DNA of 64,000 bases from an uncultured Staphylococcaceae bacterium (GTDB taxonomy: Bacteria; Bacillota_I; Bacilli_A; ML615J-28; CAG-313). The position numbers and the translations under genes are program-made. The stretch is taken from the NCBI GenBank assembly GCA_964409955.1, contig CAYPEY010000004.1:1569-65568 (forward strand), given 5' to 3'. This document shows, one piece after another, positions 9,360-17,718 of this stretch; the stretch's first letter is position 1; every line of letters begins with the position of its first letter. The notes beneath the pieces were generated by a model, which was not told the DNA's origin, did no database searches, and saw only the letters and a program-made list of their open reading frames with translations.

Positions 9360-9893
9360 TTAATTAAAAATGTTAATAATTTTAATCTTTTTATTTTTTG
9401 AGCTAAATACTTCTGTTTTACAACCATCCAACATTTTCGTAAACAAATTGATTATAACAAATTTCTTACTATAATACTTTCGATAATATTCTATAGCATT
9501 ACCCATGAATTTTTCAATATTTCTAGAGTATTCAGTTTCTCCATAATCATGAAATAAATAAATTTTGTCGTCTTCTATTTTAAAAGTACTATCTAAATAT
9601 ACTTTTAACGTATCTATATTTACTAATTCATCTATTTCAAAAATCTCATACGCATTACCATTGCTACAAGCATAAAACAAAATATAATTTCTTGTATACA
9701 TAAAATATCTTATTATTAGCAAAACAAAGATAATTGTAAACGCAATTATTAATCCTATTTTTTTAAAGTTAGAAAAAGGTGCAAATAATGCTATAAATAA
9801 ACAACAAAAAGCAAAATATCCAATATAATTAACTAGATAAAGCGTCCTAGTATTTGATATATAATTTTCATTTTTTACGTTATAATATTTCAT
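9360..9893 (-). CDS. Hypothetical two-TM membrane protein; candidate immunity protein for the orphan RHS tip
   Basis: The ATG at 9891-9893 lies 2 nt after the orphan toxin's TAA stop. There are two hydrophobic helices (YLVNYIGYFAFCCLFIALFAPF, IGLIIAFTIIFVLLIIRYFMY). No family was recognised. Confidence 0.45.
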   Translation of the reverse strand: MKYYNVKNENYISNTRTLYLVNYIGYFAFCCLFIALFAPFSNFKKIGLIIAFTIIFVLLIIRYFMYTRNYILFYACSNGNAYEIFEIDELVNIDTLKVYLDSTFKIEDDKIYLFHDYGETEYSRNIEKFMGNAIEYYRKYYSKKFVIINLFTKMLDGCKTEVFSSKNKKIKIINIFN

Positions 9894-9895
9894 TA

Positions 9896-10500
9896 TTAGT
9901 TTGTACCTCCAAAAATTTGACATACGCACTCCCAAGTAGTCATTATTCCTTGAGAAATCGCTTTAACCATTGCACTTGCTGTTTCATCACTTAAAGGATT
10001 AACTCCTAAAAGTTGCGACAATCCAAATGTCATAAGACCTTTAGTAATATCAATCGCAAAGGCTTCCATAGTAGATTTACCCATAATATCAGCATCATAA
10101 TCTTCTATTCCTAATACACTATTCACACCTATTTTTATCATATTACCTATTGTAGTACTTAAAAGTCCTAAATAAGGAACAGGTGATATAAAACCACTAC
10201 AGTATTACCAACATATTCACCAAATGTTGTTGATTGCTCTTCATCTGTAATATCTTCTATAGCAGTTGTTAATATACTTATAGCTGCAGAGACACACATT
10301 ATTGTAAGTAATACTGGCCAATTTCCATTATCATCTGCAAACATCACCGGATTACTATTACAATATAAGAATAAATTCATTCCATTAAATAATGTTATAT
10401 CTAAATATTCTACATCATCTTGAGATAGCCATCTAAACATATATGGTGAATAATATCTTGCATTACAGTAATAAAAATTAGATTCAACGTCATAATCTTG
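9896..10500 (-). pseudogene. Orphan (displaced) RHS C-terminal toxin cassette, split by a frameshift
   Basis: The translation begins ...DYDVESNFYYCNARYYSP, matching the core end of the main RHS gene (47/51 nt identical to 11821-11871). It then diverges (NLFLYCNSNPVMFADDNGNWP plus a TM helix). The reading frame switches to -1 somewhere within 10171-10204, joining track ORFs 10168-10440 and 9896-10141. There is no upstream ATG or SD. Confidence 0.65.
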
Positions 10501-10620
10501 ATTATCCCTCTATAAATATATAATGTGTTAGTTATTTGAACTAGGTATCCTAGTCAAATATAGATAAGCGTGCAACACAATTTGTGATGCAAAGTGATGC
10601 ACGCTTTATCCTGTTTACAA

Positions 10621-11058
10621 TTATTTAATTATTTGTTCGATTTTATTATCTTTTAATATTTTTTCGAACTCATCTTTATATCTTGTATTAATCAAAACTT
10701 TTTTGTCCTTTATGAACAAATTAAATTGGTAGAATACAGATTTCCTATATCTGTTACATGTATATTTTTTAACATCACATATATTAAGCTCTATCCTTTT
10801 AAATAAAGTTTTTAAATAAACTCTTTCACTATCAAACTCAACTCTATATTTAATAGCATATAGCCATCCATATAAACCGATTGTTCCAAACATAACCCAT
10901 GCAATTGCGAACAAAATAATATCTTTATCACTATATTTATCGTTATTCATTAAATAAATAGACAAAGGCATTAATATTGCAAAAATATATCCAAAAATCA
11001 TAATATTTCTAAATGGTTTGCCTTCTTTTTTCATTCCGTCAATTATTCTATTATCCAT
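10621..11058 (-). CDS. Hypothetical two-TM membrane protein; candidate immunity protein for the main RHS toxin
   Basis: It starts 14 nt after the RHS stop with a GGGAGGA SD. It has two TM helices (IMIFGYIFAILMPLSIYLM, IILFAIAWVMFGTIGLYGWLYAI) and a basic soluble tail. Confidence 0.5.
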   Translation of the reverse strand: MDNRIIDGMKKEGKPFRNIMIFGYIFAILMPLSIYLMNNDKYSDKDIILFAIAWVMFGTIGLYGWLYAIKYRVEFDSERVYLKTLFKRIELNICDVKKYTCNRYRKSVFYQFNLFIKDKKVLINTRYKDEFEKILKDNKIEQIIK

Positions 11059-11072
11059 AATTTCCTCCCAGT

Positions 11073-11705
11073 TTAGTTAAAAATATCAACCAATAATATT
11101 ACACAGGTAGCAGCACCCGCAAGCGCTCTAGCGCCCGGCATTGGTATTGCTGCAATCCCTGCACATACAAGGTATGCTCCAGCAATAGTACCCCACCCTA
11201 CATTTGCAGTAATTTCTTGAGTAGTATTACCAGAAATTGTGCCAAATGAGAAAGAAATACCATCTTGCAAACTAATTTCTGCTCCATAAGTAATCCATGG
11301 TGTCAATTGCATACTAGTACCAAATCCAATGTTTGATGAAACATAAGCACTAATTCCATACCAATTTCCTAAATTCATTCCAACCCCAGCACTATATCCT
11401 CCATTACCTATATTACTATAAGAATAAAACATTTCTGAATCGTTCAATTGAGTTGTTATGGTATAAGAAATATTACCAAAGAAAGATCCAATAAAAGCAT
11501 TTTCAATCAACGAAGTAGTATAGTGTGTCATTTCAACAGAATTCGCTTTAGGCCAATTAATGCTACCAAAACTTGATCCACCTAATGATCCAAAACCACT
11601 AACTTTTGACCCTACAACTACACTTCCGCTTCCAACAATATTACTAAATGTTCCTCTTGTAGAACCAATCATTCCACCACTAGACAATCCACTAACATTT
11701 GAACT
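11073..11705 (-). other. C-terminal variable (toxin) domain of the RHS protein, about 210 aa, unrecognised family
   Basis: The region after NNPIGIVYSS is Gly/Ser-rich with alternating aromatic and small residues (GISAYVSSNIGFGTSMQLTPWITYGAEISLQDGISFSFGTISG). It ends in a hydrophobic segment, GTIAGAYLVCAGIAAIPMPGARALAGAATCVILLV. Confidence 0.5.
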
Positions 11706-14700
11706 ACTATATACAATTCCAATTGGATTATTTTTCGCATAACTATATAGATTTAGTCCATTAATAGATTGTGGATTTAAACTAGAAACATCTGCAGGTT
11801 GGATAAATCTTCCAAGTTCTGGTGAATAATATCTTGCATTACAATAATAAAAATTAGATTCAGTGTCGTAATAATAACCTTTATATCTATATGGATTAAT
11901 ATTAGCTATGGTTGTTCCTTCTAAATTCATTGCTTCCGAAATAGTTTCCCCATATGCTGTATAAGTATATCTAGCAACAAGTTCTCCTGATGAATCTACT
12001 ATATATTCTATATCACCAAGTAAATTTGTTATGTAATAATATATGTTACTTACACTGTTTTGAGTTAGTTTAAATCCTATTAAATTGTTATTATCATAAA
12101 TATATTCTATTGTTTTGTCAGTATGGATTTCACCTATTAAAAGATTATCCATATATACATATTCTATCACATCATATTGATTAGTTGAAGAATTATACAC
12201 TTCTTTTTTTACTCTTCTATCCATTGCATCATATGTATATTTGTATAAATAATATCCTTCATCATCATCATATAATCCTACGAAGTTACTACCTTCATAC
12301 ACGTAAATATAATCATGATAAGAATAAATTCTATTTGCGGAATCATATGTATAATATGTTGTATCACCATTATGCCTTATACTTGTTATTTTTGTTTTGT
12401 TATTTGAATCATATGTAGCTCCAACTTCTACAGATAAATCACCGTATTCTTCACTCTTATTATATCTTTCAATTGCTGTAAGATTTCCTAAACTATCATA
12501 ATAATACGTTGCCTTAAATACATACATTGAAGCATTTCCTGATGCATCTTTTTCCGTTCCAACAAATTCTGTTTTTAACTGATTATACTCATCATAAGTA
12601 TAATCATATACTCGAAAATGAATAGGTAAAACACCTGTTAAATCTTCTACTTCTCTTGTTTTTTGACTAACATTACCCATCACATCATATTTATATTCAT
12701 ATGTTATTCTATATTGTTCAGTATTTATTACTTCTTTAGATATTCTATTAGACGTAAAATTATTATCATATATACTTTGATTTGAATTATTCATATTATC
12801 ACTTGAAAAATATGTATAATCATACGTTATTATATTTTCATATGACACTGTATCAATAATCTTCTTTTGTGTAATTCTTCCAAGTGAATCAGTTATATTT
12901 TGAGTTCTTATATCTAAATAAGTGTTTTCAAAATAATATAAAACATTATCACTATTATATACATAATCTAAGTCGCTTGTTATTCCATTTATATTATATG
13001 TTATACCAGATAACATATTATCATCATCATAATCATATTGTATTTCATTACCAATACTATCTTTAGAAAGAAGTAAATTTCCATTTAAATCATATGTATA
13101 AGTATAATTAATTCCATTAATTCTATCATATACAACTGATAAATTTCCCATTTCATCATATAAATAATCATTATGTATAAAGTATTCATTAGTAGCTATA
13201 TCTTGTTCATAATAATAATCTAATTTTAAATCATCATCATATCCATAATGAATAACATACTGATTTCCATATGTTGCATTTGCAAGTAATCCCGTATATA
13301 TACTTTCATAACTATAGCCATTATAATAATTGTAATTATGATAATCATATTCAACAATAACATTATAAGTTCCAGTAGATGAGCTTCTTTCTGATATCTT
13401 TAGTATATCTCCATATACATTATATTCAAATTTATACTGAATAAAATCTGAACTAGACCCCATCTTTATTGTATCTACATAACCTTCATCATTATATGTA
13501 TAATTAATTTGTCTACTCGCAAGCGATATTTCATTTAATCTTAATAAACTATCATATGTATAGCTAATTACTTTATTATTAGCATTAGTTATAGAATTTA
13601 ATACACCGTTTGCTTCATTGTAATCATATAATGTAGTCACATCATATTCATCTATAAAAGCTTCTGTATACATATAATTTTCACTATATTGATACGAATT
13701 TAAATAATAACCAAGCGTATCATTACCAGTCAATATTTCAGTTACTACATCAATTCCAGTTATACCAAAATTTGTTACCTCTACATTTGAACTTGTATTA
13801 CTAAAAGAATTAATTTTATTTCCATTTATATCTTCCGTTAATGAAATATCATAAGTACTTGCGTCAACTTCTGTAATTTTATTATTTTCATCTCTTGTAA
13901 TAATAGTATTTTCATTAGATTTAGCAACCCCTATAACTTTACCATAATCATTATACTGATATTCAGTCATAGTTGGATTTTTATATAAAACTAAATTATC
14001 AATATAAATGCTATTTTTTCCAGAATTAGAAATAGATATTGTAGCTTGGTCCCAATAACTTTCTACCTCAAATGATTCTAATATATACTGATATCCTAAT
14101 ATATCATTTCGATATTTTATTGTATATATCGAACTACTTGTCAAATCAGTTGTATTATGAAGTTGTAATTTCATTTCAACATCTGAATTATTTGTTGAAA
14201 TATATCCACCAAACGAAATAAATTCTCCGTGATTTACAGATAAATTTATCGTTTTAGACATTGATGTTGCTGAACTTAATCTACCCTCTATATTTCCAAA
14301 TACATTTGAATAATTCCTTAAACATGCTATAACATTAGTCCAACCATTTGCAACTGAACCTCCTTCACTTCCTTCAAATGAATGATCATCGATATAATTA
14401 ATATTTGATGTATTAAAATCATTATGGGTCTCACTAAATCTTAAATTTTCAAAATATGATGTTGTATTATAAGTTGTTGAAAGCTCAATTACAATATCAT
14501 ATAACTCTTCTGAATAACCATTTACTGTAAAATTACAACTATATAGTTTATATTCATCATCTACTGAATTATAAGAAACATTACAATCAACATCAACATC
14601 AGCTAAATTCTTTGGATACACATTAATGTAACCACCATTAATAATCGTTTCATCATTACCAGTTGATTTAACATATCCATAAATTGTATACGATTTATAA

Positions 14701-17378
14701 CCATTTAACTTAATTACTTGCGAAACTTTCGGAGAATTAGTAGAGTTTCCATTTTTTATTTTTAATGCATAAAGCCCAAATAAATTTTCTGTTGTATCAA
14801 CATTAATAATGTTACCATTGCTATCATTTAAAATATTCCAATCACTAATTCCATCAATGGAATTATAAATTTCAAATCCGTTATTAATAATTTTATTATA
14901 CTTATTATTTATAGTATCCGTCTTATATAGCAATTTATTATTTAAATATGAATTACTACTATCATTTTCATATTTATAAAAATTAGCGTTACCTTTATCA
15001 TCATATACATTAATTACTTGTCCTGATGAATTAAATAAATAAGTTATCTCATTATTTAAATTATCCGTAAATATTGTTTTCTGAACATTATAACTAATTG
15101 TTACATTTGTAAGGTTTGTTGTTATGTCACTTCCATGAACTATTCTATTATAATAATTTATTACTTGTCGATAGTTTTCATCATAAACAAAATATAATTC
15201 ACTGTTATATGTAATATCACTACTTAAATCTTCAATAACTCCCGTCATATAATTGAATGTTTGATCTAAATCACTATCATAATACGTATGATAATCATAC
15301 CATGCAACTATATAACTTGTTGATGTTGTTGTATAATAAGTTAAATAATTTAAATTCAAATTACTATCATAATTATAAGCTATTTTTTTAGTAAAAGTTG
15401 TAGAATTACTAGATAAGTTTCTTGTAATAAGAATTTCTGTTAATAAATCATTTGTATATGTGAAATCAGCTTTATTTCCCATTGCGTCTATAATATAATC
15501 AATTACTTTTAGGCCACTTGATGTTGTTGCATGTGAAATGCTTACATATTCAGTATTATTCTCATCTAACATTTCGATTTTTGTTAAGTATCCTAAATTA
15601 TTATAATAATAAACTATTTCGCTATTTACAACTCTTTTATAATATTCATTACTGCTTGAAGAATTTATAGTAATTACAGAATCTGCTCCATCTTCACTAA
15701 TATAATGATCAACATCATCTATAACCTTTAATTTATGATACATTACATTTCCTGTAGAATCTATCAAGCAATAATAATTAGAGGTTGTAAGTCCCGTAAT
15801 AGATGTCGGCGATTCAATTTTTTCACTATAGTTACTTCGCCACCCATTTCCATAACCGATATTTTCATTTGAACTAACACTATTATAATAAAATGCTAAA
15901 TTAAATGAAGATCTTGCTGTATCATTAGTATAATCACTTCTTGCAACTACAAAATTTCCAGCAAAACTATTTAAATAAAAACATCCAGCACCACCCATAT
16001 CAACTTCTTGATAATTCCAATAATCTTTTATTCCTTTAACATCATAATAAGTCATACTAATAGAAGTTGCCCCAATAGATACATACTCTTCATTTAAACT
16101 AAAATCATATGGTGAAAATTCTAAATACATAAAATCATTAGATGCACTTTTTGCTACTTTTGTTATATTTGTATAAAACTTATTAGTTGTTCCAGAAACT
16201 TTTAAAGGTTTATCTATAAATTTTTTTGTATAGACAGTATTACCATTAATCGTATCATAATTTATATTTGATGTAATCTGATTTATACTTACTAAATACA
16301 TATTTGAAACATTTATTGTAGCAGTATTATACATAACAGCATTTGTAATTATTACATCTTTTGGAAGTTCTGATTTATCAATCTTCATAATTACGTATTT
16401 TGAGATATCAGTACCGTTATCATCATATTTTTGTAATTTAAAAGTTGTAGCTGTAGTTGTTAACGTTTTTGTTATTTGCTTATACTCTATTTTAGTTGGA
16501 CTTGTATTTAAAGTATATGTTACAGTTGGATCTATAACAACAGGATATGTTGCTAGTTCTAACCAACTTGATGATGGAGTAATTGTTATTAAATATTCAT
16601 TGTTCTTAATTAATTCTACATTCATTTCTATATCATAACTAATATTTCCATCTGAATCATACATAAAATATTTATCAATTCTATATATTAATTCATTATT
16701 ATCATTATAGAAATCAATACTTGATGTAGTTTCTACTAATGTTAAGTTAGTAATTGATAATGTATAACTAAAAGAAAAATCTTTAATATATTTATTTATA
16801 ATGATATTTTCTTTTAAAGATCTACTATCTGTTATGAGTTCTAAATCAACATTATCAAATATATCAGTATACATTACTTTTCCAACAAGATGGTTTAGAT
16901 TACTTCTATCTGTTTTGTCTTCAATAATCTTCGCTTCTACCTTATTAATACTGTTATATATTATTTCAATTTTAGTATTTTCATATTGTAATTTAATCTT
17001 TTTATTGGAATGAATTTTTTTTGGTATCTTTAATTTATAATCTATTGAAGCACTGTCTAATTCATTACCATTTTCTTCAAATGTTGAGTTAATCTCAACT
17101 AAATTATTAGATTCATCTAAATAATGAACAGGTCTATTATAGATATAACTTTCATATAAGTTATCACTTTTTTTATATACTTTACCATATTCAGATCTAT
17201 CAGTAGTTATCTCACCTATTACATCATCGTTTGGATCATAATAATCTTTATTTAATACTATTTCTTCTGTATTTTTAGAATAGATACCATCCTCAGCAAA
17301 TAATTTAACAAACGGAAAGTTTGCAAATATATTGACAAAGATACTTAATGTTATAAGAATACCTATTGTTCTTTTCAT
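11073..17378 (-). CDS. Secreted RHS/YD-repeat polymorphic toxin (WapA-like), 2101 aa
   Basis: The N-terminal signal peptide is MKRTIGILITLSIFVNIFANFPFVKLFA. Two regions look like carbohydrate-binding modules (NNGFEIYNS...W; HSFEGSEGG...NGW). Dozens of YD repeats follow (YxYDxxGNL type, e.g. YTYDLNGNLL, YTYDAMDRRV). The RHS core end is YDTESNFYYCNARYYSPELGRFIQPADV...NLYSYAKNNPIG. Confidence 0.9.
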   Translation of the reverse strand: MKRTIGILITLSIFVNIFANFPFVKLFAEDGIYSKNTEEIVLNKDYYDPNDDVIGEITTDRSEYGKVYKKSDNLYESYIYNRPVHYLDESNNLVEINSTFEENGNELDSASIDYKLKIPKKIHSNKKIKLQYENTKIEIIYNSINKVEAKIIEDKTDRSNLNHLVGKVMYTDIFDNVDLELITDSRSLKENIIINKYIKDFSFSYTLSITNLTLVETTSSIDFYNDNNELIYRIDKYFMYDSDGNISYDIEMNVELIKNNEYLITITPSSSWLELATYPVVIDPTVTYTLNTSPTKIEYKQITKTLTTTATTFKLQKYDDNGTDISKYVIMKIDKSELPKDVIITNAVMYNTATINVSNMYLVSINQITSNINYDTINGNTVYTKKFIDKPLKVSGTTNKFYTNITKVAKSASNDFMYLEFSPYDFSLNEEYVSIGATSISMTYYDVKGIKDYWNYQEVDMGGAGCFYLNSFAGNFVVARSDYTNDTARSSFNLAFYYNSVSSNENIGYGNGWRSNYSEKIESPTSITGLTTSNYYCLIDSTGNVMYHKLKVIDDVDHYISEDGADSVITINSSSSNEYYKRVVNSEIVYYYNNLGYLTKIEMLDENNTEYVSISHATTSSGLKVIDYIIDAMGNKADFTYTNDLLTEILITRNLSSNSTTFTKKIAYNYDSNLNLNYLTYYTTTSTSYIVAWYDYHTYYDSDLDQTFNYMTGVIEDLSSDITYNSELYFVYDENYRQVINYYNRIVHGSDITTNLTNVTISYNVQKTIFTDNLNNEITYLFNSSGQVINVYDDKGNANFYKYENDSSNSYLNNKLLYKTDTINNKYNKIINNGFEIYNSIDGISDWNILNDSNGNIINVDTTENLFGLYALKIKNGNSTNSPKVSQVIKLNGYKSYTIYGYVKSTGNDETIINGGYINVYPKNLADVDVDCNVSYNSVDDEYKLYSCNFTVNGYSEELYDIVIELSTTYNTTSYFENLRFSETHNDFNTSNINYIDDHSFEGSEGGSVANGWTNVIACLRNYSNVFGNIEGRLSSATSMSKTINLSVNHGEFISFGGYISTNNSDVEMKLQLHNTTDLTSSSIYTIKYRNDILGYQYILESFEVESYWDQATISISNSGKNSIYIDNLVLYKNPTMTEYQYNDYGKVIGVAKSNENTIITRDENNKITEVDASTYDISLTEDINGNKINSFSNTSSNVEVTNFGITGIDVVTEILTGNDTLGYYLNSYQYSENYMYTEAFIDEYDVTTLYDYNEANGVLNSITNANNKVISYTYDSLLRLNEISLASRQINYTYNDEGYVDTIKMGSSSDFIQYKFEYNVYGDILKISERSSSTGTYNVIVEYDYHNYNYYNGYSYESIYTGLLANATYGNQYVIHYGYDDDLKLDYYYEQDIATNEYFIHNDYLYDEMGNLSVVYDRINGINYTYTYDLNGNLLLSKDSIGNEIQYDYDDDNMLSGITYNINGITSDLDYVYNSDNVLYYFENTYLDIRTQNITDSLGRITQKKIIDTVSYENIITYDYTYFSSDNMNNSNQSIYDNNFTSNRISKEVINTEQYRITYEYKYDVMGNVSQKTREVEDLTGVLPIHFRVYDYTYDEYNQLKTEFVGTEKDASGNASMYVFKATYYYDSLGNLTAIERYNKSEEYGDLSVEVGATYDSNNKTKITSIRHNGDTTYYTYDSANRIYSYHDYIYVYEGSNFVGLYDDDEGYYLYKYTYDAMDRRVKKEVYNSSTNQYDVIEYVYMDNLLIGEIHTDKTIEYIYDNNNLIGFKLTQNSVSNIYYYITNLLGDIEYIVDSSGELVARYTYTAYGETISEAMNLEGTTIANINPYRYKGYYYDTESNFYYCNARYYSPELGRFIQPADVSSLNPQSINGLNLYSYAKNNPIGIVYSSSNVSGLSSGGMIGSTRGTFSNIVGSGSVVVGSKVSGFGSLGGSSFGSINWPKANSVEMTHYTTSLIENAFIGSFFGNISYTITTQLNDSEMFYSYSNIGNGGYSAGVGMNLGNWYGISAYVSSNIGFGTSMQLTPWITYGAEISLQDGISFSFGTISGNTTQEITANVGWGTIAGAYLVCAGIAAIPMPGARALAGAATCVILLVDIFN

Positions 17379-17478
17379 TTTTATTTTTCCCTTTCTTAGA
17401 TTAATTTTTATTTTATAAAAATAATCTAGCTGAAGAGAAACTCCACATATAATACATATAATTTCATATAACCTTCCT

Positions 17479-17518
17479 AAAAAGCAATAAGACCCCTTCT
17501 TTCCTAAGAAGAGGTCTT
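17479..17518 (-). terminator. Strong hairpin terminator inside the RHS 5' leader
   Basis: On the minus strand the sequence is AAGACCTCTTCTT-AGGA-AAGAAGGGGTCTT, a 13-bp stem including one G-U pair. It is followed by attgcTTTTT. Confidence 0.6.
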
Positions 17519-17570
17519 ATGTCATATCGAAAGTTATCAATTCTTAGGATATGGCTTTGGCCACACTTAT

Positions 17571-17599
17571 ATTGTATTATAATTAATTTTTGTTGTCAA
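17571..17599 (-). promoter_or_regulatory. Sigma-A type promoter upstream of the RHS locus
   Basis: On the minus strand the sequence reads TTGACA, a 17-nt spacer, then TACAAT. A-tracts spaced about 9-10 bp apart (17604-17650) lie upstream. Confidence 0.6.
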
Positions 17600-17718
17600 G
17601 CAATTTTATAATTGAAATTTTGAGCGTTTTTATGCTTTTTCACAATTTTTCCAAAAAAATTAACACAATATACAACGTTTTATTTATTTTTTAAAAATTA
17701 TAAGTTATTTCGTTTAAT

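Follow-up and report, generated by a model that had tools for sequence, protein, structure and literature searches.

What does the C-terminal tip of a large RHS protein do when it bears no resemblance to an enzyme? The question is raised by a window of 64,000 nucleotides (nt) of an uncultured gut bacterium from the Bacillota, taken from contig CAYPEY010000004.1 (GCA_964409955.1, positions 1,569 to 65,568), which is the whole stretch of DNA that was analysed and to which all coordinates refer, except where a related locus is named. On its minus strand, where all window features given below lie, an intact open reading frame (ORF) at 11073–17378 encodes an RHS protein of 2101 amino acids (aa), and a second ORF at 10621–11058 encodes a protein of 145 aa. 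An earlier reading made from the letters alone (the sequence-only reading) had proposed that the two might be an undescribed pair of a membrane-inserting toxin and its immunity protein. Our analysis suggests that the tip probably represents an undescribed, non-enzymatic family that acts on the membrane, most plausibly by depolarising it, and that is carried by an RHS protein of the WapA type. We hold this reading with moderate confidence, as it draws on sequence, on predicted structure and on analogy with known toxins.

The mechanism that we propose would proceed as follows. Judging from its sequence, the protein would be exported via Sec by its N-terminal signal peptide. The YD-repeat shell would fold outside the cell and, as its homology to solved Rhs shells suggests, enclose the C-terminal ~215 aa. 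When a monoderm or wall-less Bacillota neighbour is encountered, the tip would leave the shell, perhaps while still tethered by a linker of ~55 aa. The tip domain would then enter the cytoplasmic membrane of the target and dissipate its potential or its ion gradients, probably after oligomerising. The 145-aa partner would protect the producer by binding the toxin within the membrane or at its inner face.

Composition, predicted fold and conservation of the tip

The 214 aa that follow the end of the Rhs core are unusually poor in charge. Glycine and serine account for 15.9% and 15.0% of the residues, respectively, and charged residues for 5.6%, compared to 20.7% in the RHS body. The sequence-only reading had regarded the final ~210 aa as one Gly/Ser-rich toxin. 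Its length and composition were borne out, but an alignment of homologues divides the region into two parts. The first ~55 aa (aa ~1889–1944, 11547–11714) form a Gly/Ser-rich linker that is variable or absent in homologues and has a combined Gly and Ser content of ~34–39% in the close subgroup. The conserved toxin domain is confined to the last ~157 aa of the tip, from ...ANSVEMTHYT to ...DIFN.

An AlphaFold2 model of this conserved domain, computed with an alignment of 104 sequences as input, reached a mean predicted local distance difference test score (pLDDT) of 91.9 and a predicted template modelling score (pTM) of 0.76. In the model, the beta part (aa 1945–2061, 11196–11546; pLDDT 90–97) consists of ten amphipathic strands in an up-and-down arrangement, with one short helix placed after strand 1. 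Strand 10 is followed by an Ala/Gly-rich hydrophobic helical hairpin (aa 2062–2101, 11076–11195) with the sequence WGTIAGAYLVCAGIAAI - PMPGAR - ALAGAATCVILLVDIFN, whose two helices are predicted at domain residues 123–138 and 144–161. The strands are 8 to 12 residues long, and column by column throughout the family they present I, V, L, F or Y on one face and G, S, T, N or Q on the other. The period-2 amphipathicity of the strand region has a z-score of 4.2 against shuffled sequences, a value reached by one in 5000 shuffles, and exceeds that of 175 of the 177 windows taken from the RHS body, itself rich in beta structure. The last ~40 columns of the alignment are hydrophobic and uncharged in the 104 homologues, and their sequence is variable save for the PxPG(A)R turn. 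The amphipathic beta-strands anticipated by the sequence-only reading are therefore predicted with high confidence, and its hydrophobic C-terminal stretch is real, modelled as two helices joined by the PMPGAR turn. Three conserved tryptophans (W67, W89 and W123) are found at alternate turns and at the junction of strand 10 with the first hairpin helix, which in an up-and-down meander should put them on the same side, beside the start of the hairpin.

The domain belongs to a small family of about 180 clusters at 50% identity. Homologues of the tip formed 51 clusters at 90% identity in a word-indexed search, and when all of 1.84 billion representatives were searched with a profile, 180 proteins matched at E ≤ 0.001, 108 of them at E ≤ 1e-10. 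Surveyed across these matches, the tip was found only at RHS C-termini, with the exception of one chimeric-looking protein (P0151), and an Rhs core end preceded the domain wherever there was sufficient upstream sequence. Many of the homologues in the databases consist of short ORFs located on short contigs, and a neighbouring orphan cassette in the window, described below, appears frameshifted. Such observations would fit a decaying remnant, with conservation that only reflects recent horizontal spread. However, the 2101-aa ORF is uninterrupted, it has a ribosome-binding site and a downstream gene coupled to it, and the confidence of the alignment-based AlphaFold2 model is high. Furthermore, family members with identities as low as ~25% still keep the pattern of strands, the glycines and the helical hairpin, and this degree of conservation at such divergence points to purifying selection. 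We consider decay extremely improbable as an explanation of this cassette.

The genomes that carry the family are metagenome-assembled genomes (MAGs) from the gut, labelled Bacilli, Mollicutes, Anaeroplasma, Clostridia, Lachnospiraceae, Christensenellaceae and similar, so that the hosts are essentially monoderm or wall-less Bacillota. A tblastn search of plasmid and phage collections with the tip gave no match. Near-identical cassettes, with tip identities of 91–96%, were observed in JAMPDF010000003.1 (locus L011) and CAZDPJ010000033.1 (locus L010), in MAGs labelled Prevotella sp. and Staphylococcaceae. Given a Bacilli-like context with a GC content of ~25% elsewhere, these labels are probably errors of binning or taxonomy rather than true hosts.

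Searches for an enzymatic family or fold in the tip were negative at every level. Neither Pfam nor NCBIfam gave a significant match to the tip, the only signal being a weak match of PGPGW to the PxPG turn (E 0.02). Scanning of the 104 aligned family members against Pfam returned RHS-related families and chance matches only, including a weak match to OMP_b-brl in one of the 104 members (E 0.0024, which is at chance level). A phmmer search of the tip against all PDB sequences found only 1yga, with an E value of 0.41. When the tip model was compared to PDB and BFVD by Foldseek, no match reached E ≤ 0.001 and none had a TM-score above 0.3; the top match was a designed 10-strand transmembrane barrel, with E 0.03 and a TM-score of 0.24–0.27. 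Similarities to barrels, to nitrobindin and to Cys-loop receptors were set aside as noise. A confident match to an enzymatic toxin fold, which the sequence-only reading had named as its refutation, was thus sought both by profile and by Foldseek with the pLDDT-92 model and was not found, in agreement with its view that the tip carries no recognisable enzymatic motif.

Residue conservation leads in the same direction. The columns conserved at 90% or more across the 104 homologues are glycines only; no His, Cys, Lys, Arg, Ser or Asp column reaches this level, and therefore no catalytic residues are evident. Below it, several polar positions are fairly well conserved, namely the acidic position 116 (84%, and always Glu in the closer set), N63 (84%), Q85 (78%), N7 (77%) and H13 (66%). 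These residues leave room for a different explanation, in which the tip is an enzyme of new fold, or a specific inhibitor, directed at a membrane-associated target such as lipid II, a phospholipid or a membrane protein; the hairpin would serve only as an anchor and the polar face of the strands as the active or binding site. The beta domain is indeed conserved far better than the sequence of the hairpin, and new enzymatic toxin folds are still emerging. Against this explanation are the lack of any catalysis-type column at 90% across the 104 sequences, the lack of a family or fold match for the tip, and the combination of extremely low charge with a strict amphipathic pattern, which would be unusual in a soluble enzyme. 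As judged from the alignment, the pattern of polar conservation is not that of a catalytic centre. Taken together with the properties of the partner protein discussed below, these points make an enzyme or inhibitor possible but rather unlikely.

Several considerations weigh against a membrane-acting tip. First, the hairpin helices are short (16 to 18 residues) and only marginally hydrophobic. Their insertion energies, estimated for 17-residue segments on a Hessa-type scale, are +1.5 and +3.3 kcal/mol, compared to −1.35 and +0.3 for the transmembrane helices of the immunity candidate. Marginal hydrophobicity is typical of segments that are able to stay soluble and insert later; it would suit passage through Sec and insertion at a later stage. 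The spacing of small residues in the hairpin follows a small-xxx-small pattern (G124xxxG128 and A144xxxA148xxxT152), with no triple-Gly zipper. Second, in the model the hydrophobic strand face may either pack on the hairpin, which would make the domain soluble before insertion in the way of colicin-type domains, or face lipid in a barrel-like arrangement. Third, a predicted fold that has no structural analogue provides no positive evidence of function. Fourth, the conserved polar positions listed above could form an active or binding site of a kind that is not recognised. Fifth, the C-terminal self-cleavage motif is incomplete, which makes the release of the tip hard to explain.

A bolder version of the membrane-acting tip can be derived from the barrel-like alternative. 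In this version, the ten-strand beta-meander itself would span the cytoplasmic membrane of monoderm or wall-less bacteria or oligomerise there into a barrel, locked by the C-terminal hairpin and blocked from inside by the partner, and the tip, which would come from a Sec-exported RHS cage and work without canonical self-cleavage, would found a new structural class of antibacterial pore-formers. At present we regard this version as unlikely.

The immunity candidate and the mobile cassette

The gene for the 145-aa protein (10621–11058) starts 14 nt past the stop codon of the RHS gene and is preceded by a GGAGG ribosome-binding site. As the sequence-only reading had described it, the product is a membrane protein with two hydrophobic helices. 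The AlphaFold2 model (pLDDT 89.8) consists of two long transmembrane helices (aa 11–37 and 44–70) with a loop of 6 residues between them, followed by a beta-sandwich and a helix that together make up a PH-like domain (aa 72–137). In 21 of 23 loci, the tip is immediately followed by a homologue of this partner, at a distance of 12–20 nt (87 nt in one locus); of the two loci without it, one is at a contig end and the other has a truncated tip. The partner has 240 homologue clusters at 90% identity, all of them unannotated, compared to 51 for the tip. The close linkage makes the protein the cognate immunity candidate.

In Foldseek searches, the soluble domain of the partner resembled PH domains with a probability of 1.0 and a root-mean-square deviation of 2.4–3 Å over ~80 residues. 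None of the Pfam families of bacterial PH-like (bPH) domains matched the protein at E ≤ 1, and DUF5976 gave a weak match on a transmembrane helix. Membrane proteins of the bPH/YdbS–YdbT architecture combine two N-terminal transmembrane helices with a small PH-like beta-sandwich, and the partner is similar to them in having two such helices and a helix-capped PH-like beta-sandwich. Any relationship between them would be one of fold and architecture alone.

The topology of the partner is informative for the choice between mechanisms. The positive-inside rule puts both ends of the protein, along with the PH-like domain, on the cytoplasmic side. With its only large soluble domain assigned to this side, protection would have to act in or at the membrane. 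Furthermore, a partner that exposes almost nothing outside the cell is in keeping with a toxin whose action takes place in the bilayer and argues against an extracellular enzyme, which such a protein could hardly neutralise. The PH-like domain could nevertheless bind a soluble domain, as the enzyme or inhibitor explanation might have it.

The tip and immunity genes are a module that is exchanged between unrelated RHS scaffolds. The cassette (10535–11898), which comprises a recombination handle, the linker, the tip and the immunity gene, is the sole part of the locus with 87–91% nucleotide similarity by blastn to two groups of related loci (L009–L011 and L024–L031). At the protein level, the bodies of the RHS proteins in those loci share no more than 30–40% identity with that of the window or are undetectable. 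Because nucleotide identity of ~90% is confined to the cassette while the RHS bodies are unrelated, a discrete module of ~1.36 kb has moved between scaffolds. The cassette also has a GC content of 0.32–0.35, compared to 0.21–0.28 in the RHS body. A scan of metagenomes with the RHS body for other tips on the same body found one relative of 40% identity, which was uninformative.

The two edges of the cassette carry distinct sequence elements. At the upstream edge, the handle of 53 nt (11820–11872) encodes YDTESNFYYCNARYYSP, and a copy that is 92% identical to it is present at 10444–10496, ahead of an orphan tip. Past the immunity gene there is a conserved inverted repeat (10563–10610, GATAAAGCGTGCA ... 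TGCACGCTTATC) with a stem of 12 bp, which is probably the terminator of the cassette. Its 5' arm is the motif GTAAACAGGATAAGRCGTG (within 10563–10618), which recurs directly after the immunity genes of different cassettes in related loci (L024:9432–9480; L026:6351–6400, 9415–9464, 13260–13309 and 14030–14079). An attachment (att) site for a recombinase was also considered for this motif and was set aside, as the 12-bp hairpin in the window makes a terminator the simpler explanation. The position of the motif just upstream of recombinase genes in the related loci would nevertheless be compatible with an att-site role.

Downstream of the pair, the window holds an orphan tip cassette (9896–10500) that has no promoter. 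It begins with a fragment of a core end (YDVESNFYYCNARYYSP...NGMNLFLYCNSNPVMFADDNGNW), which gives a partial match to TIGR03696 and has no start codon, and continues into another tip, covered by ORFs at 10168–10440 and 9896–10141. The orphan tip starts with a hydrophobic helix and differs from the main tip, and its three-frame translation shows an apparent frameshift. It is followed by a candidate orphan immunity gene (9360–9935), with a product of at most 191 aa from a TTG start that contains two strongly hydrophobic helices and a C-terminal domain. Neither the orphan tip ORFs nor this candidate matched a family in Pfam or NCBIfam. Given that the 53-nt handle is homologous to the RHS gene, we propose that the orphan is a silent cassette for tip switching. 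Orphan pairs of tip and partner also occur downstream of other RHS/immunity pairs (L001–L005 and L025–L030).

A related arrangement was observed in a set of gut-metagenome contigs of 250–336 kb (L024–L031), in which a large serine recombinase (Resolvase, Recombinase and Zn_ribbon_recom domains) follows each tip/immunity cassette, for example in L024:4100–14389, L026:1–11327 and L027:4100–18438. The order of the cassettes varies between samples of what is apparently the same organism, being body-A-B in L027 and body-B-A in L026, with a repeated handle of ~137 nt at the junctions. The same tip is fused to an RHS protein of 1628 aa in some samples and is an orphan of 257 aa in others. These arrangements suggest a switching of RHS tips in L024–L031 that is borne by a site-specific recombinase. 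The RHS locus of the window itself has no recombinase.

The RHS scaffold and the possible release of the tip

The sequence-only reading had identified the 2101-aa product as an RHS protein with a YD-repeat shell, and family profiles and structural homology both establish this identity. The body (11964–17294) matched the YD repeat TIGR01643 with 27.7 bits (cutoff 15.8) in NCBIfam, with additional weak matches to RHS_repeat and a weak match to DUF6531, which would be plug-like, at aa 473–523. Residues 1421–1925 are homologous to solved Rhs shells (7q97, E 1.4e-21; 8h8a, E 2.4e-18; also 8qja). The Rhs-associated core (aa 1806–1888, 11715–11963), which ends in ...NLYSYAKNNPIG, matched TIGR03696 with 60.8 bits (cutoff 32.5) and an E value of 1.3e-16.

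The N terminus (aa 1–28, 17295–17378) resembles a Sec-type signal peptide, with MKR followed by a hydrophobic core, a hydropathy peak at aa 10–19 and a putative cleavage site at KLFA|E. The signal peptide of the sequence-only reading thus has the expected pattern, although the call was made by inspection and hydropathy only. Pfam and NCBIfam scans detected no PAAR, VgrG or LXG domain in the protein, and family scans together with the neighbouring genes revealed no domains or genes of type VI (T6SS) or type VII (T7SS) secretion systems near the locus. The locus is surrounded by housekeeping genes (aroC, aroQ, a HIGH nucleotidyltransferase, Mrp/ParA, ruvX and alaS). A signal-peptide-like N terminus, the lack of PAAR, VgrG and LXG and the housekeeping neighbours together make it reasonable to call the protein a Sec-type, or WapA-type, RHS. 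The same scans detected no LysM, SH3, cell-wall-binding (CWB) or sortase signal in the protein, and the gene upstream of the RHS gene is neither SecF-like nor a sortase.

The end of the core is of particular interest for the release of the tip. Rhs tips are cut off by an aspartyl-protease motif, DPXGX18-19DPXG, on which the activity of Tse5 depends (PMC10684867). The sequence-only reading had seen a canonical core end in the window protein. The characteristic motifs, YYCNARYYSPELGRF and NLYSYAKNNPIG, are present at aa 1844–1887 and leave the tip of 214 aa behind them, but the TIGR03696 match covers only positions 1–70 of the 76 in the model, and the terminal DPxG(L) is absent. Within this end (aa ~1874–1888, 11715–11760), which reads ...RFIQPADVSSLNPQSINGLNLYSYAKNNPIGIVYSSS, there is a degenerate first DPxG (PADV) and no second one, so that NNPIGIVYSSS stands where NNPxxxxDPxGL would be expected. 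Across the tip family, the D..G cleavage motif is kept in 30 of 70 members and absent in 40, and the subgroup in which the Gly/Ser linker is long is among those without it. With no second DPxG in the aspartyl-protease motif of the window protein, the tip may be released by another route, or it may act while tethered via the Gly/Ser linker.

The same features have to be considered for the idea that the C-terminal module is not a toxin. It could instead be an anchor or assembly domain that holds the RHS protein on the membrane of the producer after Sec export, with the 145-aa protein as its membrane partner. A missing second DPxG in the subgroup and a long, flexible Gly/Ser linker ahead of the domain would both be in keeping with this role, and the hydrophobic hairpin could serve to stop transfer while the protein is exported via Sec. 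However, the module behaves as a classic polymorphic-toxin cassette, being located after the Rhs core and exchanged together with its partner gene between unrelated bodies. Orphan pairs of tip and partner exist, the D..G motif is retained in the 30 members counted above, and the hairpin is only marginally hydrophobic. An anchoring role is therefore very unlikely in our view.

Ahead of the ribosome-binding site, the RHS gene has a leader of ~190 nt (within 17379–17600). It contains a near-consensus promoter-like site, TTGACA-17-TACAAT (17599–17571), and a terminator-like hairpin (17520–17487) with a 15-bp stem and a T-run, after which the ribosome-binding site follows; the fold has a z-score of −4.6. 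An Rfam scan of the leader gave a chance microRNA match only and no real family. The leader could be an attenuator or a riboswitch-like element, or the hairpin could simply be the terminator of the upstream gene.

Relation to known toxins and implications

To our knowledge, almost all characterised polymorphic-toxin tips are enzymes that need access to the cytoplasm. We know of few non-enzymatic tips that act on membranes (Tse5, TelE, EsxX and TspA); all of these are helical, and none is carried by a Sec-type RHS protein of Bacillota. Compared to these and other known systems, the pair in the window combines familiar features in a different way.

The closest precedent in concept is Tse5 (RhsP1, PA2684) with its immunity protein Tsi5 from Pseudomonas aeruginosa. 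In this system, an Rhs shell holds a non-enzymatic tip of ~150 aa that inserts into membranes and depolarises them, and the immunity protein has two predicted transmembrane helices (PMC9637101, PMC10684867). The window system is similar in that a tip without enzymatic signature would be enclosed by Rhs and is encoded next to a two-helix membrane protein. The differences are fourfold. First, Tse5 is delivered by the T6SS with a PAAR-like N terminus and VgrG4, whereas the window protein starts with a signal-peptide-like segment and lacks a T6SS context. Second, the C-terminal part of Tse5 (Tse5-CT) is predicted to be alpha-helical, whereas the window tip is predicted to be mostly beta with a terminal helical hairpin. 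Third, the DPXGX19DPXG motif is complete in Tse5, which has to be cleaved to be active, whereas the window protein lacks the second DPxG. Fourth, the window immunity protein has an extra PH-like domain compared to Tsi5. No Tse5 chain was found in the search of PDB sequences with the tip or, at E ≤ 0.001, with the whole protein, and the deposited Tse5 chains may not include the CT.

In its scaffold, the window protein is closer to the WapA-type RHS toxins of Bacillus subtilis and Streptococcus suis, which have an N-terminal Sec signal, a YD shell, a polymorphic tip and downstream immunity (PMC12704120). Cassettes of polymorphic toxins, including orphan cassettes, have been surveyed in general (PMC3482391). 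A YD shell, a polymorphic C terminus, a downstream immunity candidate and orphan cassettes are shared with WapA, and the N terminus of the window protein resembles a Sec signal. In contrast, the characterised WapA tips are tRNases or other enzymes, whereas the window tip would be non-enzymatic and directed at the membrane, and the window locus has no detected wall-binding domain, sortase or SecF-like partner.

Membrane-acting tips from Gram-positive bacteria have been described for the LXG toxins of the T7SSb. The small-residue-rich C termini of TelE, EsxX and TspA depolarise Gram-positive competitors, and their immunity proteins are embedded in the membrane and also occur as orphans (PMC10434224, PMC12744356). 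The window tip shares with them a polymorphic C terminus rich in small residues and an immunity candidate predicted to be embedded in the membrane. However, these toxins have LXG domains, are exported by the T7SS, are alpha-helical and carry GxxxGxxxG zippers, whereas the window tip has a large predicted beta domain and only GxxxG and AxxxAxxxT-type spacing. Assignment to the glycine-zipper toxins (TelE/EsxX/Tse4 type) was rejected, as the tip has no GxxxGxxxG and no match to a Gly-zipper family in Pfam. A census of polymorphic toxins from 2012 (Zhang et al., PMC3482391) contains a single pore-forming tip, Tox-WTIP, a proteobacterial domain with two membrane-spanning helices, RxxR and Wx[ST]IP. 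It is likewise a predicted non-catalytic, pore-forming RHS tip with two membrane helices, but it lacks the ~115-aa beta domain of the window tip. Tox-WTIP was also rejected, since the tip has no RxxR, has WGTIA in place of Wx[ST]IP, and gave no match to this family in Pfam at E ≤ 1 or among the 104 members.

These comparisons define what is new in the pair. The domain family and the fold of the tip are undescribed, as the sequence-only reading had supposed for the pair as a whole, but the concept of an Rhs protein with a non-enzymatic, pore-forming tip is already known, and pairs of this kind are established by Tse5/Tsi5 and the LXG toxins. That an uncharacterised RHS tip should target the membrane would therefore not surprise a specialist. 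The pair is nevertheless a worthwhile target for experiments, as it is compact and testable (~157 aa for the toxin domain and 145 aa for the partner), with a confidently modelled fold that has no analogue and an immunity candidate with a PH-like domain. The missing self-cleavage motif, in turn, bears on how the RHS cages of Gram-positive bacteria release their cargo.

RHS and other polymorphic toxins shape competition within the gut microbiota. The lineages in which the tip family is found, among them MAGs of uncultured Bacilli, Mollicutes and Anaeroplasma, are in part wall-less, and a toxin for which it suffices to reach the exposed membrane would be especially effective against such gut bacteria.

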